NCBI GenBank assembly: GCA_026025075.1
Contig: JAPEUI010000044.1
Coordinates: 1-64,000 of the forward strand
DNA from: Vezdaea acicularis
Taxonomy: Eukaryota
Length of the DNA stretch: 64,000 nt
Direction of reading: 5' to 3'
Part shown: positions 1,303 to 44,183 of the stretch, piece after piece
How the letters are laid out: the number at the start of each line of letters is the position of its first letter
Position numbering within the stretch: position 1 is the first letter of the stretch
The notes under the pieces: model-generated
The model's input: only the letters and a program-made list of their open reading frames with translations
What the model was told of the DNA's origin: nothing
The model's database searches: none
Program-made: the position numbers and the translations under genes

Positions 1303-2793
1303 TCAACCTTCTTCTCGGTCCATAATGTCTCGACTGCGTTTCCCGTCCTTTCCACCCTTAGTCCGACCATGTAGAGTTGCCCCTTTCGAACCCCTTTTCT
1401 CATGCAAGTCTTTCATCTCTCTGATTGCTTGTCTTTGCGCCTCTCCCACTCGTTCGCCCAGTACCATCACTTCTTCCTTTACCGTCTCGTACTCGGGCAT
1501 TTTCTTCCCCAAGGCCGCTTCAATGCGCAGCCATACCTCGACATCGTACTGCGTGACCATACTGATTGCGTGACCACTTTTGCCGGCTCGTGCCGTGCGC
1601 CCAATTCGATGTATATGTGTCTTAGAATCCGCAGGCAAGTCAAAGTTGAGAACTACATCAACGGAGGGTATATCCAATCCGCGAGCAGCCACGTCGGTGG
1701 CTACGAGGATCTCGCGACTACGGCCACGGAACTTCCCCAACGCGCCGAGTCTTGAAGACTGAGATAGCTGCCCATGCAAGGGAATTGCGGAGAACCCCAG
1801 GGCGCGAAGTAGAATTGCGATCCGTTGAGTCTCATTGACCGTGCGCGTGAACACGATGACAGACTGTCCAGCAAACTCATTCAGGAGGTAGACAAGGTAG
1901 ATGTCTTTGTGCTTGTGCGGTATGAACAGGTAGGACTGGAGGAGTGTAGACACTGTCTGGTACTTGCTTGATGAAATAGATACCCTCGCTGGGTTCGATA
2001 GGGACGCTCGCTGGAGTGACTCGACTTTCGAGCTTATTGTAGCGGAGAAGAGATAAGTCCGTCGTTCTTTCGGTAGCACTTTCAATATCTTGTCGAGTAT
2101 GGGCCCGAAGTCCAAGTCCAGCAGACGATCGGCTTCATCCATGACCAAGTACTTCAATTGACGCAACGAGAAGCCCTTTGTATTTTCAAGGTGATCCAAC
2201 AGCCTTCCTGGGGTGGCAACCACAATGTGCGGCTTCTTCCCTAGAGCGATGGCTTGAGGAACCATGTCCATCCCGCCTACAATCACAGCGCACCTTACTG
2301 CTATCAGAGACCCCAGAGCCTCAAACGCCTGTGATATTTGATATGCTAGCTCTCGTGTGGGCGCAAGCACTAACCCAAAGAGAGGCTGTGGCTTATCCAT
2401 CAGCGCTTGTAAGATGGGCAGTGCGAAGGCCGCCGTTTTCCCACTGCCTGTCTCTGCAAGGCCAATTATATCTCGCCCCTCGAGTGCTAGTGGTAGTGCC
2501 TCAGCTTGAATTGGGGTTGGGGCCTTGTAACCCAACGAAGCGCATGCATCGCACAATGATTCGATGATACCCTACATACTTAGCTATTTTCACACAACCA
2601 ACAGTCCTCCTCAGGTGAGAAGGAAGCTTACAAGTTCTTGGAATGATTTCTTAGCATCTAAGGGTTCCTCTGTAGAGTCCAACGCATCTCGAATAATTTC
2701 TTCGGAGGTTGCGCCTGATGACTGAGGCGGGACGAGCTGCTTGGTAGCACTGCTGGGCTGATCATTCAGCTTACGCTTCTTGGGAGTAGACAT
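1303..2793 (-). CDS. RRP3: ATP-dependent rRNA DEAD-box helicase Rrp3 (DDX47), 2 exons
   Basis: Q motif [39 protein letters not shown]. An intron GTAAGC...TAG (~2630-2572) joins SFQEL to [10 protein letters not shown]. Confidence 0.95.
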
Positions 2794-3042
2794 TGTGTCG
2801 TAGATTCTGTCAGTTGTTTAGATAGCTAGTTTCTAGAGGAATGTGAATAACGTGAAAGTGACATATCTGAAAGAAAGCTGGCTGAAGTTTGGGTCTCGGG
2901 TAAACTCCGCAAATGGTGCTCTCCGATTGGTCACTCTAGACACCGCCTGCACATAAACTTTCTGGAACTTTTCCACCGAAATTATGCTCATATTCTAATT
3001 GGCGGGAAATATCTGTCAACCTCTTCTCACAGCACATTCAAG

Positions 3043-4519
3043 ATGGCTCGTCGCAGAACAAAAAGCCGTACTCATTTAGCCGGACGTAAAGCTAGTGGTC
3101 CAATACAGGCCAGCAGTGCTCATGTCTCCATGGGTCGAGATCCTAAGAGTATGGTCATCAGGATAGGTGCCGGGGAAGTGGGGCCGAGTGTATCTCAGCT
3201 AGCTAAAGATGTGAGGTCTATGATGGAACCAGGTACAGCAAGCAGGTTAAAGGTTATAACATGATGGAATTGAAGTATATAACGAATGCTAATCAGTTTG
3301 CAGGAGCGCAAATCCAATAGACTACGTGACTATGTCACAATGGCCGGACCTCTAGGCGTATCACATCTTCTTCTCTTCTCACGATCAGAGTCTGGAAACA
3401 CCAATCTGAGGGTGGCTGTGACGCCAAGAGGCCCTACGCTTCACTTTCGAATTGAGAAGTATTCTCTTTGCAAGGACGTTCAAAAGGCCGCGAAACACCC
3501 AAAAGGAGGAGCAAAGGAGTTCCTGAGTCCCCCTTTAGTACGTATATCAAACACGAACACTTCGGTAGCGCCCTTTACTAATTTCTCTCTCTCTCTCAAA
3601 GCTTGTCATGAACAATTTTACGACTCCTATATCAGAAAACAACTCTCAACCCGCAGTCCCTAAACACCTCGAGCAGCTTACAACCTCCATCTTCCAGTCT
3701 TTATTCCCTCCGATATCACCGCAGACCACGCCTTTAACATCAATTAGACGCGTTTTACTTCTCAATCGTGAAATTACATCCTCAAAGGATGAGGAAGGCG
3801 AATACGTCCTCAATCTTCGACATTATGCTATCACCACTAAGCCAACTGGCCTGTCAAGAGGCATTCGTCGGCTGAACGCCGCAGAACAGATGCTAGCTTC
3901 CCGAGAAAAGCGGGGCAAAGGCCTACCTAACCTTGGAAAGCTCGAAGATGTCGCGGACTATCTCTTAGATCCTGCGGCAGCTACGGGATACGCGTCGACT
4001 AGTGAATCTGAGGTCGAGACCGATGCAGAAGTTGAAGTGCTTGAAAATGGTACTCGGAAAATACTTAACGCAAAGCAGCGAGAAGCAATGCGAAATGCCC
4101 CTGAAAGCATAGATGGTTCTACTCGATCCAACGTTGAAAAGCGAGCAGTGAGACTCATTGAATTAGGACCACGAATGAGATTGCGCATGACGAAGGTTGA
4201 AGAGGGTCTCTGCAACGGCAAAATCATATGGCATGAGTATCTACATAAGACAAAGGAAGAAGTAAAGAAGCTTGATAAGGTCTGGGAAGAACGTAGAGCC
4301 GAGAAGGAGCGTCGGAAGAAGGAGCAGAAAGACAACGTTGAACGAAAGCGGAGGGAGAGGAAAGGCAGTGATAAAGCCACAGAAAAAGAAGTGGGGGAGG
4401 ACGAGATGGATGAGGACCTCAACGACTGGGACAGTGAGGATATAGATTCAGACGGGGCTAATGAAGATATGGAGGTAGATCAAGTAGGCCGAGGTAGGCT
4501 TGAGGTTCCTAAAGGCTAA
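3043..4519 (+). CDS. SSF1: Brix-domain ribosome biogenesis protein Ssf1/Ssf2 (PPAN), 3 exons
   Basis: PKSMVIRIG, DVRSMMEPGTASRLK/ERKSNRLRDY, GPLGVSHLLLFS, PRGPTLHF, LRHYAI, ELGPRMRL. Introns at ~3253-3303 and ~3538-3604. Confidence 0.93.
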
Positions 4520-4765: not shown

Positions 4766-5577
4766 ATGTTTACAGGCATAATAGAAAAGATAGGAGGTAT
4801 ATCACTGTAATCTCCTTCTATGGGAGACGATTCAACTTACTATACATAGTCGTCTCCGCGTTACAGACCAAAGATGATTCTAGCGCTGGTGGGGGCGGGA
4901 CTTCCATGACGATCTCCGACTGCGCCGAAATACTCACCGACGCGCACCTTGGGGACAGCATAAGCATCAATGGTTATTACGCAACCTCACAGCTGATCCA
5001 AAGCCACTAACACAAGTATCTCGTAGGAACATGCCTCACCATCACGGAATTTACAAAGGATGACTTCAAAGTCGGCATCTCGCCCGAGACGCTCCGGCGG
5101 ACAAACCTCGGCTCTTTGAAAACGAAGTCGACGGTGAATCTCGAGAGAGCCGTGTCTGCCTTAACGCGCATGGGCGGCCACTTTGCCCAGGGCCATGTTG
5201 ATACGACTGCTACCATCCTAGAGATCACGCCCGACGGCAATGCCCTGACGTTTCGCTTCCAGCCGCGCGATGCGAGTGTACTCCGCTATGTCGTTGAGAA
5301 GGGTTACGTTTGTATCGATGGGGCAAGTCTTACGGTCACGCGAGTAAATGATGTGGAAAGTTGGTGGGAGGTTATGCTGATTGCGTATACGCAAGAGAAG
5401 GTGGTTACAGCGGCCAAGAAGGTGGGGGAAGAGGTCAATGTGGAGGTGGATATGGTGGGGAAGTATGTGGAGAAGAGTGTTCAGGGGTACTTTGAGGGAC
5501 AGGGCGCTGGAGAGCTAGGCGTGCTTGAAAAGATGGTAAGGAGGATTGTGGACGAGAAAATGAAGGAGAGTAGATAG
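4766..5577 (+). CDS. RIB5: Riboflavin synthase (alpha chain), 3 exons
   Basis: Diagnostic N-terminus MFTGIIE at 4766, then GDSISING/TCLT, VNLERA, GGHFAQGHVD, KGYVCIDGASLT, VNVEVD. Confidence 0.95.
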
Positions 5578-5674
5578 GCAATTCTCTCACGGACCTGCCA
5601 AGGTTTAATGATGATTATCTATAAAATCAACGCCTTCGTGATCCTACCCTTCTGCCACACAAAACAATAATACT

Positions 5675-8600
5675 TTACAACTCTTGCACTCTTTCTAATA
5701 TCTCTTTTAGCTCCTCCATCAGCGCCTCTGTATCCTCTGACCCTTCAACAAGGCGTGGGAAAAATATACCGACATCAATGCCTTGACTCCTCACAGCCAT
5801 TTCAATATCTATTGTCGGTCCATAGGCAGCTCGTACTTTATTCTTCTTGATCCAACCCGGCTCATCTCCTTCTTCCCACACTGGCTCCTCCCAATCACTG
5901 TCAGTACTCCAATCTCTCGCTTGTTCAAGAACTATTTTATCATGGCTGGGATATCGTGGGTTCAGTTCCATTTCGGGCAAGCTCAAGATGTTGAGCGTGC
6001 AATCTAGCTTGACACCCGTCCACTCCAAGATTTCCCAAAGCCCTACTCGGGCATGGCGTGCTTCTGCTATTAGAAGCAGATCTTGCTGCACCCTTGCAGC
6101 GCTCTTTAGCAGTGGGGTTGATCTTGGTTCTCTTATTCGTAAAGGCAGTATATTCATCGTTGGCGCCACAAGCTTTTCAAGCTCTGGTATAGGCAGAGAG
6201 CGCTGAGCGAGGTATATGCCAAGGACAAAATCCGGATCTTTGTCGTTCGTGGGTGAAGGATGAAGCAAAGTGCAATGTGCACGAGCGTACACCGCAATCA
6301 GCACACTTTGAACGCTAAGCCCGGCACTTTTTGCAACATCGGCAACCGGCATAGAGGGGCTGAGGGAAGAGACGAAGAGGATCTTTCGAGCCCTTGAATG
6401 AACGTGCGACAGAGGAGAACCCCTATCCGCGAGCAGTGTACGTGTATTTATGCAGTTTTGCAAATAGGTCTGCCAGAAATCTTGACATCGGAGTGGTGTT
6501 GAGGAACCTATCAAGTAAGATATAAATCTTTTGATGGTCAAGTTTGAGAAGGGATGAGATTCGGGTTTGTTATAGAGCTCTTCTAGACGTCTGACAAGAA
6601 GCGGTAGGCTGACGCCATCGTATAGCGCATGGTGAATGCGCAGATGCAAGATCATTCCATCGTGAAGTTCGCCATCCAGCTTACAAACGCCGAGAAACAC
6701 CAAGCTATCTTTGTTGCCAGATGAAGTCACCGCTCTTACAAGATCTCGATGCAGAGACCTTTCATCAGAGGCCCACATAACGCTTTTCTTTTCTGCGCCC
6801 GTGAAATTCTTTATAATTTGGACGAAAGGGACGCGACTTCGATCAGTCGCTGCAAATAGCGTTCGTAAGATGGAATTCTCTTTACATAAGGCGACCCAAG
6901 CTGCTGCAAGACGATCTTTGTCCATCGAATGTGCGGTGAAGTATCGAAATGTAGGGTAAAACAGAGCGCCTCTACTATGTTGCCACGCAGAGAGCATATA
7001 GACTTGACCGGCAGTAGCAGGGAGCACAGACTCAACCGCATCATGCTTCATATTAAGTGTCTCGCACGCTTCGTCAATAAGATGCTCGCAAAGCAATCCG
7101 TCAGGGAAAAGATTCGGCGTTGCTTGCTCGCTATCTGTAATAGCTGAGACCGAACTGTTAACAAGTAGTGCTATATTTGCGATTGTCGTAGCTTTGAGTA
7201 TATCGCTCACTGAAATCCGTATGGACTGTTTCCGAAGAAGAGCGGAAACCTTAATGGCGCTGATTGAGTCGAGTCCGAGGTGAAATATAGTCTGAGTCTT
7301 TGAGATCTCTAGTTCCGCGATCCCTGACACTTTTGAAAGAACTGATCGAATGGCGGATTCAGTAGATAGCCATTCGCCAATTGCCATCAAGGATTCCGGT
7401 TTATCAATTGGGGTAACTGAGTCGGTGACAGACTCTACTTGTTGAAGCTCAAAGGCTAGCTGTCCACAAATTGAAAGACCTTCACTGGTAAAGTCGATGG
7501 TTGGATTCTCTGGTGACTTGAGTATATGCTCAAGCACGCTTTCCATCTGCATTAGTAGGTCTTCCGCGCCGTCTCTATCGAAGATAAAACTTTTACAGGC
7601 AGTCCGCCATACGACAGTGTCACCGACGATTTCCATTTCAACACAAACAGGATACTGAACCTCATTAGCTAAAGTATATGCCATGATTTGCTGATCTCAC
7701 CTCTACTTCAGATGACCCTCCCACTGACTCATAAAGTGACTCTCCCTCAGATCTCAAAGGTGGCCTTCTCTGATAGATGAACAAGGAGTCAAAAAGCCTT
7801 CGACCACTATGCCCCACCAGGGCTTTAGCCCTTCGAAGCGGGAAATGTTGATATTCGAGGGTGTCCGCATTCTGATCTTGCATGTACCGAAGTAACTCCT
7901 CGATTGAACCATGCAAGATTGACCTGATCGCAACGGTGTTCATTGTTGGAAACAGAACGTTTTGTGCTTTTTCCGTGTCTCGTCCAGAGAGAACCGTTCC
8001 AAAGACGACATCCAGTTTCTTCAGATGCTGTGCGAGCACCAGAGCCCAGCATGTCAACCCTATGGTCTGTACAGTAACTGCCTGCGACTTACAGAATACT
8101 ATCAGCCGCTCGGAGGAGAAGGAGGATATCCGTTCTCGGCGATGAACCCGATCTGATAGGTCATCATCATCAAGTTCAGAAGAAAGACAGCAGCTCTCCA
8201 CTCCTGAAAGGGTGTCCTTCCAATATTTTTCCGCAGCGGGGCCTGCTGAATTCAATATATCTGCGAGCACACTTCGGTAGCCTGGTCTAGGAGAGTATTT
8301 GGCAACGTAGGAACTGCGAACATCATCGTGTAGGAGTCCCTGTGACCAGCCATCGTACAAGGCGTGCGCCATAGATAGCAGCAACAACTTGCCTTCCTTG
8401 TCGTTGATTAGTGTAAGCTTGAAGTTTTTGCCTTCTGCAAGCTCTTTTCGCGCTCGATACATTGCTTCTTGAACTGCGCCGTCCTTTGACCCATAATCTG
8501 CAGCGAAGATGACGTCAAAAGTGTCGCCGACACTGTCGCACACAACTTGCGCATAGGTGGCGTCTATGTGAGGATCATCAATTTCGATAAAAGACGTACG

Positions 8601-11600
8601 CAATATTGGTGATTGTGATATTAAATTACACCATTGGGCTTCCAGCAACAACACGTCCGTTGACGAATGTAATGCCATAACTTCGTGGTTGAAATAGCGA
8701 GCCCCTTTAGAGGCCACCATCTCTGCTATCATCGCTTCCTGTAAGGGGGTCACTGGAAGAACACTTGTCGTATGTGGAGGAAGTTGATCAGTGTCCCTCA
8801 GATATGCCCATAGGAGTTTTTCTTGTTCAACCAAGTCGTTCCCATGCTTTTCAACGACAGATAAGACGCGTTCGCCCCGAGAGCTTTCAACAGCAATCTT
8901 CTGTGCCATAGCCGAGACTGTCGGACTGTGCATCACGTAGCTCACGGGTAGTTCGATACCGATTGTCCTCAACCGTGAAGTAAGCTTTATTACGTCGAGA
9001 CTGTCGAGACCTAGCTCAAATATCGAAGAGAAGGGCTTGACCAAAGAAACGTCGAGTCCTGCAATCTTAGCCAACTGATCCCTTATTTGCTTTGCTTGAT
9101 GAGACCATTCATATAAACCATCCACTTGCAAGCTTGGAGCACGTGCAGAATATGCGTCCCATACAATGTCGTGCTTGAGCTGAGAGCCGTCCTGACCTGC
9201 CCCAGGATCTTCTTCAACTGGGCTAGCTTCAATAAGAATGTTCGCGCCCAAGCATAAGGCTTTGGCATCTACTTCGATATCTCTCAAAGCTCTCTCAATC
9301 TCACCAAGAAGCTCGGCCGCGATTGTTTCGTTGAGAATTACCCCCTGCGCGACAATATTAAGTTGGAGGTAAGGCGTAGAGGAATCTGGATTATATACAG
9401 CTTCAAGAGATATTGGATACTAGCACATGTCGTATTTAGTCAAGTACTCAAGGGGCACGAAACATCCAGGGAAGCATACATCAGCCTGAGGAGCAGCCTC
9501 GACCTCTTTCCACAGATGATATTTCCCGCCCCAATCATCCGCCTCTTTTTGGAACACAAAGAGCGAATCAATCAAGGGCTCGTCAGGTGACCGATTGCAC
9601 CATTTCGTAACATCTCGTAGTGCTGTATGCTGAAACGGAACTGCTGTAGTATTGAAAGCGTGACACTTCTTGATTATGTCATCCCAAGAATTTTTAGAAG
9701 TTGTTTTTATGTAGAAAGGAATAGTATTGAAGAGAGGTCCAGCAATATTTTCAGCATCTTCTAAATGAATATTCCGCCCTGAAACCACCAACCCCATCGC
9801 GGCTGGAATTTGGAAACGCCTCTGGAAGACAACGCACCAAGCAGCTTGAATGAGGGATTGATGCGTTACTGAGTGCGACCTCCGAATACGGTCAATGACG
9901 TCAAGCGGAATGGCTCGCGAAGAAGTGACTGTTCCATACGCTGGATGCGCTGTCAGATGTGGGATTGCAGCATATTTATTCCCTTCCATTACCTCTTTCC
10001 AGAACTCCTTGGCGCCTTTGGTTTTCATCAAAGGGCCGAAAGACAGGGCGTCATGAAACTTTGGCCGCACCATTGAAGGTAATGATTGATATTCTGAAGC
10101 TACGTCTTGGAGGATCATCCGAAGACTCATGCCATCGTATAATGCGTGCACAATGTATATGCACAATACTCTTTGAACAGGACTCTGCAGCAAGTGAAGT
10201 TCAAAGCAAGATTTGGTAAAGGCACGGTTGGCTCGCCACCAGTCTGTGAAAGCTTTTGATTCATACTTCTCAAGAGCTGTCACCGTAGCAAATTCATGCT
10301 TGTACCACGGTAAGTGGGGCCTTCTCATGACTACCTGGGCGAAGCCATCATTCTTCTGCAGAAACTTTGTTCTGAGAACTTGAGTTGCTTGGTAAACTGT
10401 CTTCCAGGCGTTTTGGAGCATTTTCAAGTCTGTTGTGGATGGAAGCTCGAGACGAACCATATTAAAATACAGCGGCTCCTCACTCCGAAGAGATCTAGAA
10501 ATGATTCCTTCTTGCAGCGGCGTACAAGGAGCAATTGATTCTATGCTATCGACAGTAACTTCGAGAGTCTTCGAAAAGGAGGCCAAATACTTCTTAGAAT
10601 ATGCGTTGATATTGTGTTGTGCCGACATTTGATCAAGATTACGCCGATTGCTGGTCTTCGGGCTCTCTGTTAGCGCAGCCATGAGGCTACTAATAATCGG
10701 ATCTATGGATTTCAATGACCAAAGAAGAGCCCGGATTCTCAGATAAAACTTACTTTGTATAATTGTCGAGTTCTGTGCTTCAATCAACCCTCTCTGCCTC
10801 AATTTTCTGGCAAAACCAATGACCGAGATGGAGTCAAGCCCTATGTTAAAGATGTTAGATCCTCTACCAATTGCATCAGGCTTCAACCCCGTAGCTTCGC
10901 ATATAGCCTGAAGAATGATCTCTTCTTTTTCTGAGCTATGTTCCCACATGCCATTCCAAGACGAGGTTAATTCATGTAACGTTTCAGGAGAAAGATTACT
11001 ATAAAAGGTCTTCAACCTTTTGTAGTCTGTCTTATTGTTAACAGATAAAGGAATTCTGGTAAGGGGTAGAAAATGAGTTGGCACCATGTATCCTGGTAAT
11101 TTAGCGTGACATGCATCTTGAGCCGCTGCTACTAGTTTTTTCAGGAAAGGCCCGCAAAGCAACTGCAGTGATGAATGAAGAGGAATCTGAAGAGATGGAA
11201 CGAAGAATGATACAAGTTGCTCCTTCATTTGGTTGGGATGCTTTAGAACCAAGGTTTCAATCTCCTGTATATCGCTGACGCTGCCCTTGATAACTTCATT
11301 AATTTCCGCTATCTCAAGCCGTTGGCCTCGAAGCTTTACTTGGTCGTCGGCCCTCCCAAGAAAGTCAAATGAGTCATCATGAAGAATGCGAACAATGTCT
11401 CCCGTGCGGTACACCCTCTCTTCAAATTTTTCAAGTATGGGAAAAGCCTTCTCCGTCATTTCAGGTAGGTTCAAATATCCTTGCCCAACTAATGTGCCGG
11501 AGACGCAGAGCTCGCCCACAGCTCCTCGCAAGACGGGATTGGTTCCTTTTGGGTTTAAGACAAACGAGCCCACATTGTCAAATTGTGGACCTATATTAGA

Positions 11601-14600
11601 GGGCTTGCCATTCTCAGGGACTCTCGGGTACATCGTAACGCCTATGGTAGCTTCGGAGGGGCCGTATCCATTATAGATACAGTTCTTTGGGCCCCATTTA
11701 TCGATAATTTCACGTTGAAGTTGTTCACCACCAGTGATAAATACTCCTTTAGAGAGCATAGGAACCTCTTCAGGGCATAACTTCTTTGCCAGCGATGGAG
11801 TTAAGTCGATGTGGGTTATTTTAAGCCGACGAATAGCTGCAGCTATGTCCTCGAATATCAGGTCTCGTGGCGCAGACGTAACACAAATCCCAACGCTCCA
11901 GCTCCAATATTGTTCCATAACACTGACATCGAAGTGGAAGGATGCAAATTGAAGAAAACGCGAATTCGTATCCCAATGACCTTTGAAGACACGTTGGAAG
12001 GCAAGCATAAATTGAACAGCATTTTCATGCGATATCAAGCAGCCCTTCGGCGTTCCTGTTGTACCGGAGGTGTAGATACAATAGCAAATACTAGAAGGCG
12101 CAAGAACTTGGTCTGATGGACTGAGACCTGGTATTTGAAAAGAAATCGAAGCTTTGGTTTGGCGGTCGTCCAGAGCAATGACAGGGATAGAGACTGATTG
12201 AAAGGCTTCGCTAAGGTCTTTGGTTGTAAAGAGAAGCATTGCTCGTGAGTCTGCAATGATGAAGTTGCGCCGTTCTGGTGGACTTCCAGGATCGATAGCG
12301 ACGTAAGCGCATCCAGCTTTCAGTATACCAAGAATCGCAAAAGACGCCTCAGGACATTTGTTGAAACACACTGAAATTAGATTTCCGGGCCCAATTGATC
12401 TAGATCTGAGCAGTGACGCAATCTTTTCTCCCTCTTCATTCAGCTGAGCATAGGTCCATTTCTCTTTGATGACCCTCTCACCTTCAAACGCGGTCGCAAA
12501 CTCAAACGCTATTTTACGGGGAATTTTCTGCGTCTGAAGCTCAACAAACCCATGTAAACAAGTCACCTCAGACGGGATTTTCGAAACACTTGCAGGCGTG
12601 ACAGCCAAGAGATTGCTCGGTAGTGATGTAAATTCTGATGCGACGGAGTTCGAGTTCGACAAAGTATCGATCAGAGTACCTTCGAATTGAGCAAGTAGAA
12701 GTTCAGAAGCTTGACGAGGCACTCTATCCTCCCTTGCCGTAATCTGTAGCTCAAGCCTTCCCACTCCATCACTGAGATTTTTGGGAATAATCTCTATTGA
12801 AATTACGTACTCAGCAGTCGCTTTTTCGTTTACAACAACCCAAGGCCAGCTTCGCTCAAATGTACTATCAACTGTTTTCTGATATGCGAAAAGTGTGTCA
12901 AATAGAACTTCGTGTTGGTGACCACTCCATTGACTGATCTTGCTAAGAGGCGTGAATTGGTGCTTCGTAATGTCTAGATTCTTAGCCATCATCTGGTTCA
13001 AAAGGTCCTTGTTTCTCCCCTCGTTAAGACCATTTTCTGCGCCTATATGGGCTGAGATTGGAAGGCTGGTGACAGTTGGAAACACGGCATCCTGAGCTGA
13101 ATAAAGGTTCCTGCGTCCGGAAAAGACGGTTCCAAACGTGACTGTCGAATCGCCGAGATATGCTGATAATAAACGTGCCCAAGCAGCTTGGCCGGCTGCC
13201 AGCATAGTCACCTCCTCCTTCTTGCACATACCCTCAAAATCTATCAGACTCAAAGCACAGATTCGAGAGACCGTGTTCGTTGCATCTGATGATACCTGCA
13301 GAGGATTAAGGTCAGGAAATCTCCTCATTGCCATATCTTTTCCTGTTTTATGCCAGAATCGTCTTGTGTCGTCCGTTTGATCCAAAGAACGTCTAAGGAT
13401 CTCTCCTAGAGCGGGCGCCACAGGCACTGCTGGGAGAAGTACCACGTTTGTGTATGCTCTACCGACGTCATCCAGGATTAGATGAAGCGACTCGCCATCA
13501 TAAAGAGCGTGATGTGCAAAGAATTGTACGGTTATTTGGCTTTTGGACGGTATAATGACCAGACGCCAAGCTGGGCGATGGAGACTGCGCATGATACTGG
13601 CTGTGCAACGCTTGGCCTGTTCACGGAGCCCCACATATGGTCCGATTGAATCGCTGAGAGCTTCGCATGGGAGGTCGGCAGCATCAGCAGAATACGTTAT
13701 CATCGCAAACTGAAACTCAGAGTCATTGACAGGAGCAAACCCGGTCCGTAGCATCTGATGCTTCATAAAAACAGCCTTCCAGGCCATTTTGATATTTTGA
13801 AGGCTGCCAGCAGAACGCTCAAGCTTCATTTCAAGACCGTTACAATACATGGAACCTTCTGAATGCAAGAACTGAGCAATCATTCCCGCTTGTATGGCCG
13901 TGCAGGGCCAAATGGACTCAATATCTTGTTCCCTCAGGTCGAATAGAGTACATGTTTTGGTACGAAATTTCTTGTCGAAGCCTTCCACATCGAATAAAGC
14001 CATCTCATCGAAGACATCTGTAGGTTGCGCTGAAGCAAATCTTGCCAACTGTCTGACCGTAGGGTTCTATGAGGCGTCAGCGATTATCTGCTAGATCCCT
14101 GAATGAAACGTCTCACATCCAGAACGGAGAAAACATCGACACCATTATATCCATGGTCCCGAAGCTGCTGGGATAAGGATATTGCAGATAAAGAATCTAA
14201 GCCAAGACGAAAAAATGAAGTATGGCGGTCGATTTTCCCCAATTGACATCCAATAATAGCACTGACTAGCTCTGCAATTTCTTTCTCTAGGGTTGTCCAT
14301 TCTGCATTCTCTCCTCTTTGGCCATATCCTTCGTCGAGCTCCACCTGGTGGTCTGAAATCTCTTTTTGACTGTCAAATCCTAAGGAGCTCAGGATATTTG
14401 CTCGTCTGACACGGACGCCTAATTCCTCGTCCAAGATTTCACTACTCTCATGCTCAACCTCAGATTTTGGCTCATTCTCGTATGCATCTTGACTTCTCTT
14501 GGACTCTTCATATGTTGATACTAATTGCTTGGTATCGACCTTACCAGAAGGGAGACGCGGCACATCTTGAAGGAGTACAATATCACTAGGGATCATGTAG

Positions 14601-16160
14601 GATGGAAGCCATTGCCTGCATGACTCTAGCACTTCGGTGGCTGTCACCCTGGGCTCTGTAACACAGAAAGTCACGAGGATGCTGTCGACGACCGCTGCTG
14701 TGGCGTTGAATACCCCTTCCATGCGGCATATAGCTTGTTCAATCTCGCCAAGTTCAATTCGCTGTCCTCTTAATTTGATCTGGCGAGAATCCATTCTACC
14801 TAGAAAATCGATTGACCCGTCAGGCATTATTCGAGCCTTATCGCCAGTACGATAGTATCGACCGTACTTCTGACTACCTATAAATGCCAGAGATGTCTGC
14901 TCAGGACGGTTGAGATATCCATCAGCAACTTGGTAGCCGCCAATGGCAAGTTCCCCTACTTCTCCGAGTGGAAGAGCCTCCATTTCCATGATCTCGTTAG
15001 GATCAGAAGCTATTGGGGCAAGAATCAAGGCTGTGACAGTACTGAAGGGTATTCCGATGTTGCTGACTGGAGAGTCTGAAAGCATATTACCCGCAATAGT
15101 GCATTGCACTGCGGCCTAGGGCGTGTCAAAATAACCTTCTTATAGTTTGACAGTGTGGTTGATATTTTTAATACACCAACATACATACCTCTGTTGGTCC
15201 GTACATTCCGTGTAGTATGCCGGGGCATTCTGCAGAACCGCCGAACTCCTTCACGACAGGCCTAGATAGCATTTCGCCAATCGTCAGCAAGACCTTCAAG
15301 CCTGGAACGTTCTTCCTCGTCTTTAAGAGGCTAGATACAACGGTGGGGGTGAGCTCTGCTCCATCGATGCCCATTTGGTTGATGACTGCAGGTAAGTTGC
15401 TCAGTAAATCGACCCGATTGCAAGCAATAAGGGTTGAGCCTCGATAAAGAGTGAAAAAGATCTCGAAGACAGACACATCAAAGGTAAGGGCCGCAAACTG
15501 CAGAAAGCGACAAGAATATGGAACATGTGGCTCTTGTGCTAAAAGAGATTGTGTCACGGCAAGGTGTGATACTTGTACGCCTTTAGGAGTCCCTGTGGAT
15601 CCAGACGTATACATCACATATGCTGTACTCTCTGGTGTTGCTGTATACATTAGCGCTTTTGCTGGAGGCGATGTAGGCTCAGGGCACCCAAAGATAGTAT
15701 CATCCACAACCACGATATCTGGGCCATTCTCCCATTCCACTTTCTCTCTCAGTGCAGAAGAAGTAATCACGACTAGCCCGTTGACATCGCCGATCAGATA
15801 TCTAAGACGATCTGGTGGGGCGTCCAAGCTCATTGGACAAAACGCGGCACCAGCTTTTAGAATTGCAAGCAGTGTAACGTAGAGCTCCGGGCATTGTGGA
15901 AGAAGGACCGGTATGATGGGCGTAGGAGAACCGTGGCTGGGTCTAACTTGCTGCAGAGCAGCGACTATGCTAGCTGCAAATGCTGATGCAGCTGCGTGCA
16001 GGGTTCCGTAGGAATAGCATTCTCTTCTCCCACCAAGCGCTAGAAATTCTAGAGCGCATTCCTTGCTCGTGGCATGTTGGTCCAACAAGTGGTGGAGCAA
16101 CCTGGGACCAGGCAGAAGCTTTGGAAATGGATTCAAGACCGAAAGCTTACTCTGCGCCAT
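5675..16160 (-). CDS. sidC: Ferrichrome-family siderophore NRPS (SidC/NPS2-like), ~3400 aa, 6 exons; architecture A-T(truncated)-T-C-A-T-C-T-C-T-C
   Basis: Two A domains (YTSGSTGTPKG/YGPTE/YRTGD/LPSGK and YTSGTTGTPKG/NGYGPSE/YRTGD/NNK). T motifs LGFDS, LGLDS, IGLDS, LGLDS, LGLDS. C motifs HHALYDG, VHALYDG, AHALYDG, HHALYDG. GT-AG introns at ~15188-15117, ~14116-14067, 10753-10703, ~9478-9421 and ~7720-7675 join the ORFs in frame. Divergent from sidA. Confidence 0.93.
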
Positions 16161-16527
16161 TGCTAACGCAGGAATAATGCACGGAGAGATTAAAAGCGCA
16201 ACGTTTTAAATGATGTAGAGTTCATGCAGTCGCCCAGAAAGCTTGCGAGGTTCTTCAGCGATCCCTATTACACAGAGTAGCCATATAAGTACATTGGAGG
16301 GCATGCTGAGGTGAACCGGTAGCTTAGGCTGGATCGTAACATATCGTTGGAACAACAATCTGAACTGCCACGAGTGCAGAAAAAGAAGTAAGCAATGAGA
16401 TGGCAAGACGACTTGGCGTGCATTCAACCCACGTCACGAGAATGGAAACATGGGGCGCGGAGGGGAGATCTAGACTGAAAACGGAATGACATGCCAGCGC
16501 TAGTCTGATTTGTGGGGTGCTCGTGCA

Positions 16528-16566
16528 TTATCTCCAGATCAGATAACTTTGATCAGCGCTGATTGG
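16528..16566. promoter_or_regulatory. Iron-regulatory element: SreA-type ATCWGATAA site, a second inverted GATA site and a CCAAT box in the sidC/sidA bidirectional promoter
   Basis: ATCAGATAA at 16538-16546 matches the SreA consensus ATCWGATAA. TTATCT (AGATAA on the minus strand) at 16528-16533. ATTGG (CCAAT on the minus strand) at 16562-16566. Confidence 0.7.
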
Positions 16567-16795
16567 CGAATCACCTCCGATCTCCGGATCCGTCTTTAAG
16601 TGCCACTTGTGAACGCGATCATGACGATTAACGACTATTCCCCAAACGCGGTTACACGTCCGTCTCAATCCTCTTCCTATAGAAATTTGCGCAAACTGCA
16701 TGAACCTTGTTTACGTGCCTTCGATTCTACAGAGTCACTTGAAGAATGGCGGCCAGTAATTATAAAATAGCGCATTTCCGCAAGCATGACGTTGA

Positions 16796-18489
<1,694 letters not shown>

Positions 18490-19127
18490 GCCTAAGGGCT
18501 AGGGACCAACTATTCATGAGGATTTCAGTCTCTAAGACGCCGAAAGTCTATTGTATGTCATGTATATCTTTCTTGTGGAAGGTCACGTTTGGTACACCAC
18601 TACGAATCAAAAGCTTGTGGTCCAGAACCTCACGCTCAGAAGACTCCGAAATGCAATCGTGAGAACCTTGCCCATTTTGCGGACTAACTGTTCATGATCT
18701 TGGACAATCTTATCTCGACCCGAGAAGTCCGATTCTCTTTTCTTCAGGGTTGTAATCGTCCACAGAAAAGCTTTGATCTCTCTATTTCATTTATAAAGTA
18801 CGTCCTCGGCAACGGAGCCCAGTACACAAGGCCTAAATGATTTAAAATGCTATGAAACTGAGCCGGTCACCCAATACTCCTTTTAAAACAGAATGACTCG
18901 GTCAGATAATATATACAATTAAATTTCAAAAGTTCTCCGGTATAAGCTGGAGCCTGATTGATAGCTACTCGGGCTTAGCGGATTCATGCAGCCTTAAGCA
19001 ACCGTGCGGACCTTCTTCCGAAATATTTTGTTCCGACGCGATATTCTCGACTAAGCCCTCGAGATCTGCAGACCACGACTAGTCTTTCGTTTCAGGAAGG
19101 ATCTTTCGTAGATCTTGAATAATCATC

Positions 19128-38758: not shown

Positions 38759-39830
38759 AATGTCTTTTCGAGCTGTTGCATAAGGAAGCAAGAGGATGCA
38801 AGGCAAGTAAATGTGGATGCTGAGACGGTCAAGGAATGCAATGTAGAGCGAGGTACCAAGCCGGTGATTTGAATGGTGAGAATCAGCTATTGTCAGTGAC
38901 ACGCGAGGGTGGTATTTTGGATGACGGGTGCGCGAGCCCTATTGTGGCGGGCAGCTTGGTACAAAGTGGGGCGCTTGAGCTTTTGGCACGTCCGCTTGAC
39001 TCATTCGCCAGCTTTCGGTGGGTTCAACGCGCACCAAATACGTATCTCCAACACAGGAACTCCTGGAGTAAAATTGAAGTCCATATTTATCGTCACTTTG
39101 CACGAATTCTAAAGCGTTGCGCAGCGCACATATCCATTGTTGGCAGTATCGTCCTCCTCTCAACGGTCTCTTGGGAACGAGCTGGTGGGCGGCACTAAGG
39201 AATGCCAAGAAGTGGCTTTGTCACGTGGCTGTGCCGTTGCCAATCTTGACTGTGCCGTACGAGGTAAGGGTCATTGGGGCTCATGAGACGAGCCGCGCTA
39301 CGAGTAGTCCGACATTCCTTTTTCTTGACGTTGTGGCAGCCCGGTCTCTCCTTCCTTTCTTTTTCCCACCTTCTGCGTGCAACCTTGCAGCCTTGCGCTC
39401 CCACCAATCCGAGCCCTGCGCGTTTTGTGCGTGAAAGGCGGTGACTCCGGCTCCGCGAGATCTTATCGCGGGTTGGACAGGGGTCGTGGCAAAATACGCA
39501 CATCTCGCGCAGCATCATAGATTGACGGCATCAGTGGAAGCTTCCAGCGGGGAGCTTTCACTGTGCTGACTGAAGCCTCTCTCTTCCGAACCAGCCTGTT
39601 CCCTCTTTTTCCAGGCGTTGCATATATCAACTCACTCATTTCCTGCTGTCCATTCACTTCTCTCGTCAGAGCGCCCTGCGAAACGTTTCGGGTGTCATGT
39701 TATTCGCGACACCTTGAGATTGCATCCAGGTGCACATTCCGATCCCCGCCTTTCTTGGTTGACCCGGCCGCGAGCTTGCTGCCTCCAGAGCATCGTCGCT
39801 CTATTTGAGCTGGGCGTGCCCTCACTTACG

Positions 39831-42800
39831 ATGTCTGAAGAAATCGAACGGATTCGCTCGGAATCTAGCCCGTCTACTCTCGCCATGCCACAGACTCCAG
39901 TGGTTCCTTTGGACCGCGCCCTCCCTCCCATTCCTCTTGTAAAAACGATAACCAAGAAGGCCCGCTCTTTTTCGGATCCCGAGAACCCTCTTTTTCTAAC
40001 GACTGTTCTTGCCAATAACATTCATTGCGCCTCTTGCATATCCCTAATCTCGGAAACTCTCAACGCCCTCGAGCCTCGTCCCCTTGAAGTTGATGCGAGC
40101 ATCCTTACCCATGCAATCAGAATTCGACATAAGCCGGCACTGGCCGTCCGGACCATCGCTAGTCATTTGCGTGAAGCTGGTTTCGAGCTTCACAGTACAA
40201 CCACTGACGATGTGAACGGGCAACGAGTGGGAGAACTGGACTTCTCAACGAGTGCTCAGGATGGCTGGCTGGACCATGCAGCAGGTCGCTGGTCTAGAGC
40301 TTCCCTGGGCTTTCCTATCCGAATGCGACATGGCTCCTTCCAGATGAACCTGGGTTCTTTTGATCCCACGGAACGTGACAAGCGCAGAAAACACATTGAG
40401 AACTGCGAAGCGTGCCAGGCCGATGAGCGTGAGATTCAGGAGAAGAAAGTACGGCCGTCACCTTCCCGATATGATAGTCAAAGGAAGCACAGCCAACGGG
40501 GCCGACAGGCCGGAGCTACGCCAAGTCGGGATGGTAGTACTCGAGAATTGCTCAATGACAATTTGTCAGATTCATTTGATCAGCTTTCTAAACTAGAAAG
40601 CCAAAAGGACCTGCCTGAAGAGTCCATACCACTGGAGCGCATTCGGGAGGGTTCTGACCAAGGTCATTCCCTTGAGGTGAAGCTGAAGGAGGCAGCTAAG
40701 GTTGTAAACACGCACCCTCAAACCACATTCCCGGATACAGAGGCGCAGTATGAAGCAATACTGAGTATTGAGGGCATGACCTGCGCCTCATGCGTTGTTG
40801 CTATCACAGCTACAGTGAAACAGCTTTCCTTCGTCACGTCCATTGATGTGAACCTCTTGGCGCACAGTGCGTCTTGCGCTTTTACTGGTACCGAGAGCCA
40901 TCTCCACGAGATTGTGGAGACGATCGAGGACACAGGGTTCGGTTGCTCGGTGCAGGATTCCTGGCGCACGGACACGAACGCAAAAATAAACAACGCAGCT
41001 ATCCGACAGGACGTAGGTACCAATGTCGCACCGACTTTCAAGGCTCTCTTCAGCATAGATGGCATGACATGTGCCTCTTGTACAAATGCCGTGACGAGTG
41101 GTCTTGAAAAGACGAAATGGATCAAGTCAATCAATGTCACCCTCCTCACAAACAGTGCCACGGTTGTATTTCAGGGGACGAAAGAAAGAGCCAGCGAGAT
41201 TCTCGAGATGATCGAAGATATGGGGTTCGGCGGCTCTCTGCAGGACATCTCGCAGATCGAAATTCCGGAAAACCCTTTTACAGGAAGGAAGCTGACCAGC
41301 AGAAGCTCCTCGTTCAAGGCGACATTATCCCTTGGAGGTATGACCTGCGCATCGTGCACGGGGGCTATAACCACTGGACTGCAAGACTTGCCCTTTGTTG
41401 AGAAAGTCGAAATCAATCTATTGGCTAACAGCGGTACTGTTGTATTTGACGGAAAGGAAAACATAGATGCAATCGTTGAAAAGATTGAGGCCCTTGGATA
41501 TGAGTGTACTCTGGAAAGCTTGATATCCGAAGGGGCCCAGCGTGGCAGCATCGAGCCCGTGAACAAGGAGAAAAAGGTGATAATTCGGATCGATGGCATG
41601 TTCTGCGAGCATTGCCCTCCGCGAGTTCTTGCAGCGCTAAGAGACAACTGCGGCGATCTTGTCAAGATAATCGAGCCTCTCACCTTGAAAAAACCAATCG
41701 TTACGCTCACTTATATCCCTCACCCGCCGGATTTCACAGTCAGGAATATTGTAGCAGCGATCTCAGAGGCCAACGATGCTTTCCAGGTATCGATATACCA
41801 CCCTCCAACAATCGAGGATCGATCTCGTGCAATGCAGTTGCATGAACGAAGAAGAATCGGTCTGCGGCTCCTACTCTGTGCCATTATCGCCATTCCAACG
41901 CTCCTAATTGGAGTTGTCTTCATGAGTCTTGTTCCAGCAACTAACAGAATTCGCGTATTCTTTGAACGTCCCATATGGAGCGGTACTGTCACTCGCTCAG
42001 ATTGGGCCCTTCTTATCCTAGCAACACCTGTATACTTCTTTGCCGCAGACGTGTTCCACACACGAGCATTCAAGGAGATAAGAGCGATGTGGCGAAAGGG
42101 AAGCCGGGTCCCCCTTATGCGGAGATTCTATAGATTTGGAAGTATGAACCTACTACTCTCCGCTGGGACTTCGATTGCTTATATAGCTTCTGTTGCTATC
42201 ATCATAATGGGATCGCTCCAGACGCCAAGGCCGGAGATGTCTGGTTCATCTATGACAACCTATTTTGATTCTGTCGTTTTCTTAACCATGTTCATTATGA
42301 TTGGTCGGTACCTAGAAGCATATAGCAAAGGGAAAGCTGGTGACGCTGTCACGACGCTTGGAAAGCTTAGGCCAACTGAAGCTCTTCTTCTCACCACCAC
42401 AAAGGAGAGCGGTGGATCCTCTTTAGATAACTCAACCTTGGATCAAGTCAGATCGAACTCAACAAAGACTGTCCATGTTGACCTTCTAGAGATGGGAGAC
42501 GTCATTCGGGTTCCTCACGGCGCGTCGCCTCCCTTTGATGGTACAGTTCTGGAAGGCAACTCATCCTTTGATGAGAGCTCATTGACCGGCGAGTCACGTC
42601 CAGTCGCCAAAGCACCAGACGATGCCGTTTTCGCCGGTACGCTCAATCAAGGCCAATCGATCACTATGGTGATTACCGGCGGATCCGGCTCGTCTCTCCT
42701 TGACCAGATCGTCAAGGTCGTGCGTGAAGGGCAGACGAAGCGTGCTCCTATCGAGCGCGTAGCTGATGTAATCACCGGCTACTTCGTCCCTGTCATCACT

Positions 42801-44183
42801 CTCATCGCAATTGTCACCTTCGCCATCTGGATTGCGCTTGGCACCTCTGGCCGCTTGCCGCAACGTTGGCTGCAGTCTGATAGCACCGGAGGCTGGCCAT
42901 TCTGGTCGCTACAGTTCGCGATTGCGGTGTTCGTTGTGGCTTGCCCATGCGGCATTGGTCTCGCTGCCCCAACGGCGCTCTTCGTTGGGTCGGGCCTTGC
43001 TGCTAAACATGGTGTGTTGGTCAAAGGTGGCGGCGAGGCATTCCAAGAGGCCTCTACACTTGACGTTGTTGTCTTTGACAAGACTGGCACGTTGACTGGA
43101 GGCAACCCTCGCGTGGCGCATCACGAACTTTTTGCTGCGTCGGGTATCGCGGATGAAATTATTTGGGCGGCAACGCTCTCGCTCGAAGAAACGTCATCGC
43201 ACCCTATAGCTACTGCGATATCAACCCTCGCATCGCAAAAGAAGCGGACACCCACTGCGGACAGCGAGATAGATGAACTCCCGGGACTTGGTCTTCGTGG
43301 TCGCATAACCTTCCCTGCGTCCGCAGGATCGCCTCACAGAGCCTATGAAGCTGCCATTGGTTCCTCTTCGCTTCTTCGAGAGCTTGGCATCTCTCTGGAC
43401 GACTACTATGTACGAAATTCGCTGTCCGAACAGCGTTCTCAGGGACATTCCATAGCACTCCTCGCCCTTCGGCCGGCTCACAGCGACAAGACTGCCACTG
43501 CTAAAGAACCATGGAAATTAGCCGCCCTCTTCGCAACCCATACTCCCCTTCGCCCTTCCGCGCTCCCCACAATCTCGGCCCTCCGCTCCTCCGGCATCGC
43601 CGTCTATCTCCTCACAGGCGACAACGCCCAAACCGCCTCTGCCGTCGGCGCCTCCCTCAACCTCCCCGCCTCAAACATCATAGCAGACGTCCTCCCAACG
43701 GGAAAAGCCGCCAAAATCACCGACCTCCAATCCACCGCGCCAAAGCGCCACAACCGTCCCGCGAAGAAAGGCGAGCGCGCCATCATCGCCATGGTCGGCG
43801 ACGGCATCAACGACGCCCCCGCCCTCTCCGCGGCCGACGTGTCCATCTCCCTGTCCGGCGCCTCGGGCGTCGCGATCAGCTCCTCGAAATTCATCCTCGC
43901 GGCCGCGAATCCCAGCTTGGCGACCATCCTCACCCTCATCACGCTGAGCGAGAAGGTCATGCTCCGCGTCAAGACGAATTTCGCATGGGCACTGGTGTAT
44001 AACGTTTGTCTTGTGCCGCTTGCGGCGGGCATTCTTATGGGAGTTGGAAGTCAGGGGGTTAGGCTTGGGCCGGTCTGGGCGAGTGCGGCTATGGCGGCTA
44101 GTAGTGTGAGTGTCGTGTTGAGTAGTTTGGCGCTTAGGAGCAGATTGCCCTGGCTGGGCTTTAAGGCGGCGAAGGTGGATTAG
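39831..44183 (+). CDS. Copper-transporting P1B-1 ATPase, CrpA/Crp1-like, intronless
   Basis: HCASC, CEAC, three GMTCASC and GMFCEHC metal motifs; TGES, CPC, DKTGT, HP, GDGINDAP, YN and MAASS (Cu+ signature). The first ATG is at 39831; the track's 39618 start is a TTG. Confidence 0.92.
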   Translation: MSEEIERIRSESSPSTLAMPQTPVVPLDRALPPIPLVKTITKKARSFSDPENPLFLTTVLANNIHCASCISLISETLNALEPRPLEVDASILTHAIRIRHKPALAVRTIASHLREAGFELHSTTTDDVNGQRVGELDFSTSAQDGWLDHAAGRWSRASLGFPIRMRHGSFQMNLGSFDPTERDKRRKHIENCEACQADEREIQEKKVRPSPSRYDSQRKHSQRGRQAGATPSRDGSTRELLNDNLSDSFDQLSKLESQKDLPEESIPLERIREGSDQGHSLEVKLKEAAKVVNTHPQTTFPDTEAQYEAILSIEGMTCASCVVAITATVKQLSFVTSIDVNLLAHSASCAFTGTESHLHEIVETIEDTGFGCSVQDSWRTDTNAKINNAAIRQDVGTNVAPTFKALFSIDGMTCASCTNAVTSGLEKTKWIKSINVTLLTNSATVVFQGTKERASEILEMIEDMGFGGSLQDISQIEIPENPFTGRKLTSRSSSFKATLSLGGMTCASCTGAITTGLQDLPFVEKVEINLLANSGTVVFDGKENIDAIVEKIEALGYECTLESLISEGAQRGSIEPVNKEKKVIIRIDGMFCEHCPPRVLAALRDNCGDLVKIIEPLTLKKPIVTLTYIPHPPDFTVRNIVAAISEANDAFQVSIYHPPTIEDRSRAMQLHERRRIGLRLLLCAIIAIPTLLIGVVFMSLVPATNRIRVFFERPIWSGTVTRSDWALLILATPVYFFAADVFHTRAFKEIRAMWRKGSRVPLMRRFYRFGSMNLLLSAGTSIAYIASVAIIIMGSLQTPRPEMSGSSMTTYFDSVVFLTMFIMIGRYLEAYSKGKAGDAVTTLGKLRPTEALLLTTTKESGGSSLDNSTLDQVRSNSTKTVHVDLLEMGDVIRVPHGASPPFDGTVLEGNSSFDESSLTGESRPVAKAPDDAVFAGTLNQGQSITMVITGGSGSSLLDQIVKVVREGQTKRAPIERVADVITGYFVPVITLIAIVTFAIWIALGTSGRLPQRWLQSDSTGGWPFWSLQFAIAVFVVACPCGIGLAAPTALFVGSGLAAKHGVLVKGGGEAFQEASTLDVVVFDKTGTLTGGNPRVAHHELFAASGIADEIIWAATLSLEETSSHPIATAISTLASQKKRTPTADSEIDELPGLGLRGRITFPASAGSPHRAYEAAIGSSSLLRELGISLDDYYVRNSLSEQRSQGHSIALLALRPAHSDKTATAKEPWKLAALFATHTPLRPSALPTISALRSSGIAVYLLTGDNAQTASAVGASLNLPASNIIADVLPTGKAAKITDLQSTAPKRHNRPAKKGERAIIAMVGDGINDAPALSAADVSISLSGASGVAISSSKFILAAANPSLATILTLITLSEKVMLRVKTNFAWALVYNVCLVPLAAGILMGVGSQGVRLGPVWASAAMAASSVSVVLSSLALRSRLPWLGFKAAKVD

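Follow-up and report, generated by a model that had tools for sequence, protein, structure and literature searches.

A compact two-adenylation-domain synthetase of apparent NPS2 lineage in Vezdaea acicularis

Here we describe a Vezdaea acicularis gene for a nonribosomal peptide synthetase (NRPS), carried on a 64,000-nucleotide (nt) stretch of contig JAPEUI010000044.1 (positions 1 to 64,000; hereafter the window) within an 18.9-Mb, 315-contig fungal assembly. The gene occupies the minus strand at 16160-5675 and is predicted to encode a ferrichrome-type enzyme of 3401 amino acids (aa) with two adenylation (A) domains, four intact thiolation (T) or carrier domains, four condensation (C) domains, and a half-T remnant. 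Judged by domain orthology, its content is A1-T1(half)-T2-C3-A4-T4-C4-T5-C5-T6-C6 of the NPS2 lineage, with two separate internal losses. By analogy with characterized synthetases, the most likely product would be ferrichrome, a reading that we hold at about even confidence.

Gene model, domain layout, and the assembly

Four phase-0 GT-AG introns yield an open frame of 3418 aa; a fifth GT-AG intron, 51 nt long and free of stops (10753-10703), removes a stretch that interrupts T4, giving 3401 aa and a normal T motif. All five introns are predictions from DNA. The initial annotation of this gene had proposed a spliced protein of about 3400 aa, a length implying one intron fewer than the five predicted here. 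Pfam searches on the exons give the order A-T-C-A-T-C-T-C-T-C, with which local hidden Markov models (HMMs) agree; with the half-T1 remnant (T*) added, this reproduces the string A-T*-T-C-A-T-C-T-C-T-C, two A and four C domains in an open frame, that had been read earlier. A1 begins at aa 21, with no C domain upstream of it, and the active serines of 4/4 T domains and the catalytic motifs of 4/4 C domains are intact. The features of the gene are as follows, with the second A domain, A4, marked as being of the N5-acyl-N5-hydroxyornithine (AHO) type.

5675..16160, minus: NPS2-lineage ferrichrome-type NRPS gene by domain orthology; 6 predicted exons, 3401 aa
16160-15189, 15115-14117, 14066-10754, 10702-9480, 9419-7701, 7654-5675, minus: predicted NRPS exons
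14507..16100, minus: A1, apparent NPS2 module-1 A domain, of Gly type according to its clade; intact cores and a drifted pocket, DVFELIMVQK
14372..14470, minus: putative T1 remnant, N-terminal half as far as the GFDS serine, without the remainder of the carrier
14300..14371, minus: junction 1 and linker, where the C-terminal half of T1 appears lost, along with C1 and the Ser-type A domain of module 2; bridged by the X1 and X5 contigs
14034..14299, minus: intact, apparently T2-orthologous carrier (Ser at aa 632) leading directly to C3; junction 2 at or just after its end
12726..13928, minus: C3 condensation domain, HHALYDG intact; best match C3 in 82/82
11001..12557, minus: A4, terminal A domain, AHO-type, DVMDIGGIGK; matches PDB 3ITE (SidN), E 9.6e-79
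10703..10753, minus: predicted in-frame, stop-free 51-nt intron inside T4, absent from the 3418-aa reading
5981..10925, minus: T4-C4-T5-C5-T6-C6, C6 being the terminal C; three Ser and three HxxxDG intact

The remnant reads LGFDS, its serine being aa 573 (nt 14371). It lies 57 aa from the A10 lysine, a spacing that falls at 54-59 in 88 of 91 homologues. The T1 profile gives it +4 bits, whereas the profiles of T2-T6 give -44 to -60. On this spacing and score, T* is best read as T1 reduced to its N-terminal half, with colinearity holding as far as the serine. There are four in-frame GT-AG pairs here with a weak donor, so part or most of the remnant may be spliced out.

Contigs from two studies support the architecture. 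Seven DNA runs from three studies are listed as containing part of the NRPS gene, with no RNA run among them, and four of these were aligned to the window. One contig (X1) spans 13477-18579 with 48 differences and 0 gaps; another (X5), from a separate study, spans 7085-16285 with 770 differences (8.4%). The only coding indels in X5 are two net-zero pairs, leaving the frame preserved in a relative of this divergence. Both deletion junctions are bridged by X1 and X5, with no joints reported, and because these contigs come from two studies, one of them 8.4% divergent, the compact architecture is real and common to a related lineage. The divergence of X5 is too great for it to be the source sample; X1 is possibly related to that sample, yet differs by 3.9% over 5000-11996 (271 differences), against 0.9% for the 48 differences of its contig over 13477-18579. 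This uneven divergence suggests haplotype blocks or recombination inside the NRPS gene.

An assembly collapse, which the initial annotation had asked to be checked at ~14300-14370, is thereby ruled out, and we give very little probability to an inactive, relic gene or a misassembled junction. The last exon, compared within the window's own lineage, carries 16 non-synonymous and 14 synonymous changes among 30 displayed rows, a ratio of about 0.48 (p 0.036 against neutrality) from a small and biased sample; selection this weakly purifying would be the point in favor of a relic. Against it stand the bridged junctions, an open frame of 10.2 kb, an intact sidA gene, and an SreA-type site.

Domain orthology and comparison with known synthetases

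Orthology was judged against the best 120 of 1360 long homologues, of which 82 have the Type IV and seven the Type V NPS2 layout. Across the 82 Type IV proteins the assignments are uniform: the first A domain pairs with A1, the second with the terminal A, and the four C domains in turn with C3, C4, C5, and C6, every one of these best matches holding in 82/82. Among the Type V proteins A1 is best in only 4/7; A1 is truncated in 3/7. An A-domain phylogeny, as the initial annotation had recommended, agrees. A quick IQ-TREE run on 79 near-full A domains, taken from 24 proteins plus the query, places A1 with the module-1 domains and the second A with the terminal ones (SH-aLRT 100 for both clades), away from D.3. 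This tree left out domains shorter than 400 aa and rows of the SidC lineage, and its careful search is unfinished; XpSidC and SidC (discussed below) are set apart by published text, with D.3 standing in for SidC A2 (PMC2644324, in the portions available to us, as for all papers cited here).

The core of the carrier that precedes C3 scores T2 over T3 by +39.6 bits (held-out means: T2 +45, T3 -34), a score that was positive for 19/19 true T2 and 1/19 true T3 held-out cases. Coarser measures do not decide between the two: a padded HMM gives T2 84 and T3 81, and whole-T pairwise scores against the 82 proteins give 43 T2, 26 T3, and 13 T4. The carrier nevertheless leads into C3, which in 56/56 fetched fragments is preceded by T3. 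On the core score we reject a single deletion fusing T1 to T3. A half-remnant of T1, followed by a T2 core leading into C3, therefore points to two missing blocks: the first would comprise the C-half of T1, C1, and the module-2 A domain (A2), and the second C2, T3, and any D.3 A domain. The internal deletion proposed earlier thus proves real, although it appears as two blocks and not one.

Two further proteins show other irregular layouts. P0200, an NPS2 protein, has a C-terminal A-domain fragment between C2 and T3, and is a possible intermediate in the loss of the D.3 domain. P0475, a Trichophyton interdigitale entry of 2546 aa, reads A1-T1-A(terminal)-T4-C4-T5-C5-T6-C6, which may reflect misannotation or else one more reduced form of NPS2.

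Every domain of the enzyme maps to the Type IV/V NPS2 ferricrocin synthetases of Fusarium and Cochliobolus, in which 3-4 A domains stand beside 6 T and 6 C domains, one C per bond (PMC2644324); here there are 4 T, 4 C, and 2 A, without the Ser-assigned module-2 A. Hence the six T-C units and one C per amide bond that mark NPS2 Types III-V are missing; the closing A-T-C-T-C-T-C block with its A domain of AHO type, a feature of ferrichrome-type NRPSs, is present. S. pombe Sib1 (Type III) is also of the NPS2 lineage, with two working A domains including a Gly-assigned module-1-type A, and makes ferrichrome (PMC2644324), but it keeps extra T-C units and a degenerate A domain that are absent here; Sib1 has been proposed to load carriers across modules, with no polymerization needed (PMC10192304).

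The closest layout is that of XpSidC from Xanthoria parietina, which has two A domains and makes ferrichrome in A. fumigatus lacking sidC; it is common to 33/37 OSLEUM lichen homologues (Happacher et al., PMC13462969). Each enzyme has two A domains and, counting the terminal C, four working C domains, with sidA clustered and SidL elsewhere, and the two are similar in size—most of the lichen entries are 3150-3669 aa, against 3401 here. XpSidC, however, is SidC minus A1, T1, and most of C1, with a degenerate C domain first and the polymerizing A2 kept (PMC13462969), whereas the Vezdaea enzyme has the NPS2 module-1 A first, a half-T1 remnant, and internal blocks lost; nor is there an ABC transporter among the window open reading frames (ORFs) scanned here. 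On domain orthology (a module-1 A1 and no leading C) we reject membership of the compact lichen SidC group, and we infer that the XpSidC-like layout arose independently, in another lineage and with another Gly domain. The layout itself is therefore already catalogued with an ordinary product, but its lineage and domain set are not; what is apparently new is the convergent NPS2-lineage origin of the two-A layout. The initial annotation put the A domains of described ferrichrome synthetases at 3-4, a premise that is outdated: XpSidC carries two, Type VI enzymes carry one (PMC2644324, PMC10192304), and SidC without A1-T1 makes ferrichrome.

In the literature as available to us we found no two-A NPS2-lineage enzyme, though Figs S3/S4 of PMC13462969 may include further compact forms; in the available part of PMC5148876 the architecture string occurs only inside a longer Type II string. 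No protein of equal architecture was found among the best 120 of 1360 long homologues, among 148 new of 150 representatives listed (133 not ferrichrome-like), in the top 23 of 120 listed short matches, or among 120 listed of 155 in a further search with an upper length of 3295 aa—rankings that favor proteins with more domains, so that absence is weak evidence. Nineteen compact-looking matches of ~3660 aa turn out to be Type IV proteins truncated after C4, and a further nine of ~4000 aa to be Type V fragments.

Substrate pockets, proposed product, and alternatives

The pocket residues, with positions anchored on motifs and without a GrsA alignment, are DVFELIMVQK for A1 and DVMDIGGIGK for the terminal A, the same residues that had been read by eye. 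In hand comparisons, the A1 pocket equals that of the Gly-assigned A1 of ChNPS2/FgNPS2 at 14/17 positions, and the A4 pocket that of the AHO-assigned A4 of ChNPS2 at 15/17; SidC matches at 7/17 only, for both its A2 against A1 here and its A3 against A4 here. The NPS2 module-1 A clade was assigned to Gly since Sib1 makes ferrichrome (PMC2644324). A1 is full length, with its cores (P-loop, D235, A5, A7, K517) present, and C3 keeps 49/54 conserved columns, within the held-out range of 43-53.

The mechanism that we propose is taken from A. nidulans SidC lacking A1-T1, which makes only ferrichrome (Jenner et al., PMC10192304). In SidC the A2 domain builds poly-Gly on T2, and the next C domain, C3, gates length by taking only Gly3 and refusing Gly1, Gly2, and Gly5; a single AHO domain, A3, loads three carriers (PMC10192304). 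By this analogy, A1 of the Vezdaea enzyme would load Gly on T2, the single remaining upstream carrier, and extend it to Gly3 through amide formation by the A domain. C3 would then take Gly3 and join the tripeptide to AHO on T4; A4 would load AHO onto T4, T5, and T6, C4 and C5 would extend the chain, and C6 would cyclize the hexapeptide. We infer that the retained C3 is the counterpart of the SidC Gly3 gatekeeper because of the loss of module 2 mapped by Bushley et al. (PMC2644324). Ferrichrome is the likeliest product because the working set—2 A, 4 T, and 4 C—equals that of XpSidC, and ordinary ferricrocin is unlikely because the Ser-type module-2 A domain is gone. Both points had been put forward in the initial annotation, Gly iteration leading to ferrichrome as one of its options and the loss of the Ser-type domain.

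Several points weigh against ferrichrome. SidC is of another lineage, and Gly polymerization has been demonstrated solely for its A2 (PMC10192304), whose NPS2 counterpart is the D.3 clade and not module 1 (PMC2644324); the weak link is that the known polymerizing domain appears not to be orthologous to A1 here. NPS2-lineage enzymes, in the view of Jenner et al., have enough C domains and need no polymerization (PMC10192304). Gly as the substrate of NPS2 A1 is a predicted assignment, and Bushley et al. found that the ferrichrome-synthetase family does not obey the 10-residue code (PMC2644324). C3 now faces T2, a pairing found in 0/56 fetched fragments. Finally, A1 is the most drifted domain; it keeps 131/150 conserved columns (87%), below all 11 held-out proteins (135-149), while C3, A4, C4, C5, and C6 lie within the held-out range. 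Its pocket differs from ChNPS2/FgNPS2 A1 at 320, 330, and 331, and the Ile330 and His331 found in 74/75 homologues are both changed.

This drift, which also hits the A8 motif, would fit adaptation or early decay alike. If A1 is decaying or bypassed, A4 would load T4-T6 and the product would be an AHO trimer, basidioferrin-like; we think this unlikely. Its model is provided by the Type VI enzymes CsNPS2 and Cpf1 (basidioferrin, coprinoferrin), which have the same C-terminal A-T-C-T-C-T-C block; one-A enzymes yielding AHO3 are known, and loading by an A domain can need an upstream C as its platform (PMC10192304), a possible reason for the retention of C3. Type VI enzymes, however, have no upstream A-T-C, whereas A1, T2, and C3 here are full length with motifs intact, including the T2 serine and the C3 catalytic motif; A1 keeps all its cores along with most of its conserved columns, and the 8.4%-divergent relative shows no net coding indel.

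Other alternatives keep A1 active. Read colinearly, with A1 loading a single residue and C3 ungated, the four T and four C domains would yield a cyclic or linear tetrapeptide, Gly(or Ala/Ser)-AHO3; C3 does have a new donor carrier, and module-1 A domains are without demonstrated iteration (PMC10192304). We judge it decidedly unlikely, given that the SidC gatekeeper refuses chains of other lengths and that XpSidC, with an equal layout, yields a hexapeptide (PMC13462969); no such fungal tetrapeptide appears among the papers listed, as far as titles and the starts of abstracts go, and a ring that small may fail to close. Alternatively, A1 could iterate with an altered pocket that takes Ala or Ser besides or instead of Gly, giving a hexapeptide with another tripeptide. 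His331 is replaced by Gln, alongside the changes at 320 and 330; in SidC A1 the residue thought up as the dock for Ser is Asn331, a proposal that goes with the ranking of 331 among the specificity sites (PMC2644324). This we find quite improbable, since 14/17 pocket positions are still those of the Gly-assigned clade and ferrichromes retain at least one Gly (PMC10192304). Two losses and a remodeled A1 pocket could together lead to an undescribed product, either X-AHO3 or a ferrichrome with an unusual tripeptide; the non-canonical siderophore of the initial annotation is thus possible but somewhat unlikely, and ferrichrome remains our preferred reading.

Genomic setting and significance

The NRPS gene is divergent from sidA, with a putative regulatory site in the promoter region between them:

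16931..18489, plus: sidA, L-ornithine N5-monooxygenase, intact, 485 aa, 2 predicted introns; divergent from the NRPS gene
16538..16546, plus: ATCAGATAA, putative SreA-type site in the divergent NRPS/sidA promoter region

We take ATCWGATAA to be the SreA consensus; it matches twice in the window against 1.38 expected, with ~0.017 expected in the 770-bp NRPS-sidA intergenic stretch. Intact sidA and an SreA-type site bear out the earlier suggestion of an active locus insofar as the locus looks intact. The genome encodes one Acetyltransf_8 gene (contig C302), a candidate N5-acyltransferase that is presumably SidL-like, judging by its N-terminal extension; SidA and such an acyltransferase, both encoded in the genome, are a further feature of ferrichrome-type NRPS systems. 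GC content is 46.9% in the NRPS gene, 50.4% across the window, and 54.6% at the SidL-like locus.

No other C-domain NRPS was found in the genome (this gene accounts for 4/4 candidates), and hence no in-trans complement; neither a separate C1 nor the missing modules turned up elsewhere, in searches that are lower bounds, and a split gene with the lost modules encoded elsewhere was rejected on these searches. A second adenylation-type gene, with a 988-aa frame (G000:C58:15204-16568), had no C domain found. A TRI12-family search gave six major facilitator superfamily matches, without classification as siderophore transporters, and an FTR1 iron permease (G000:C46:42079-42923) may provide reductive iron uptake beside the siderophore route.

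The NRPS-sidA pair sits among housekeeping genes (window 1306-4519, 5011-5577, and 19586-58780), including a DEAD helicase, a Brix protein, an arginine methyltransferase, a cyclin, a kinase, Per1, AGM1, Brf1, MUS81, and ChAPs; a riboflavin synthase-type gene ends ~100 bp from the NRPS stop. The window also carries, at 39570-44183, the 1537-aa open frame of a P-type ATPase for heavy metals in which three HMA domains are present.

The physiology implied is ordinary—iron handling by the sole NRPS detected in the genome. If the enzyme makes ferrichrome, a module-1 A domain can polymerize Gly as well, as a latent family trait or a separate gain; this would extend a behavior demonstrated for one domain, SidC A2, contradict the published view that polymerization is unnecessary in enzymes of the NPS2 lineage, and mean that the two-A minimal layout arose twice. 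Because A1-T2 is small and its pocket departs at a few positions from homologues that hardly vary there, it would then offer a direct handle on the residues that permit iteration. A shorter product would be a new siderophore, and an undescribed one would be a new fungal hydroxamate scaffold, from an assembly line that a natural deletion of modules would have reprogrammed.

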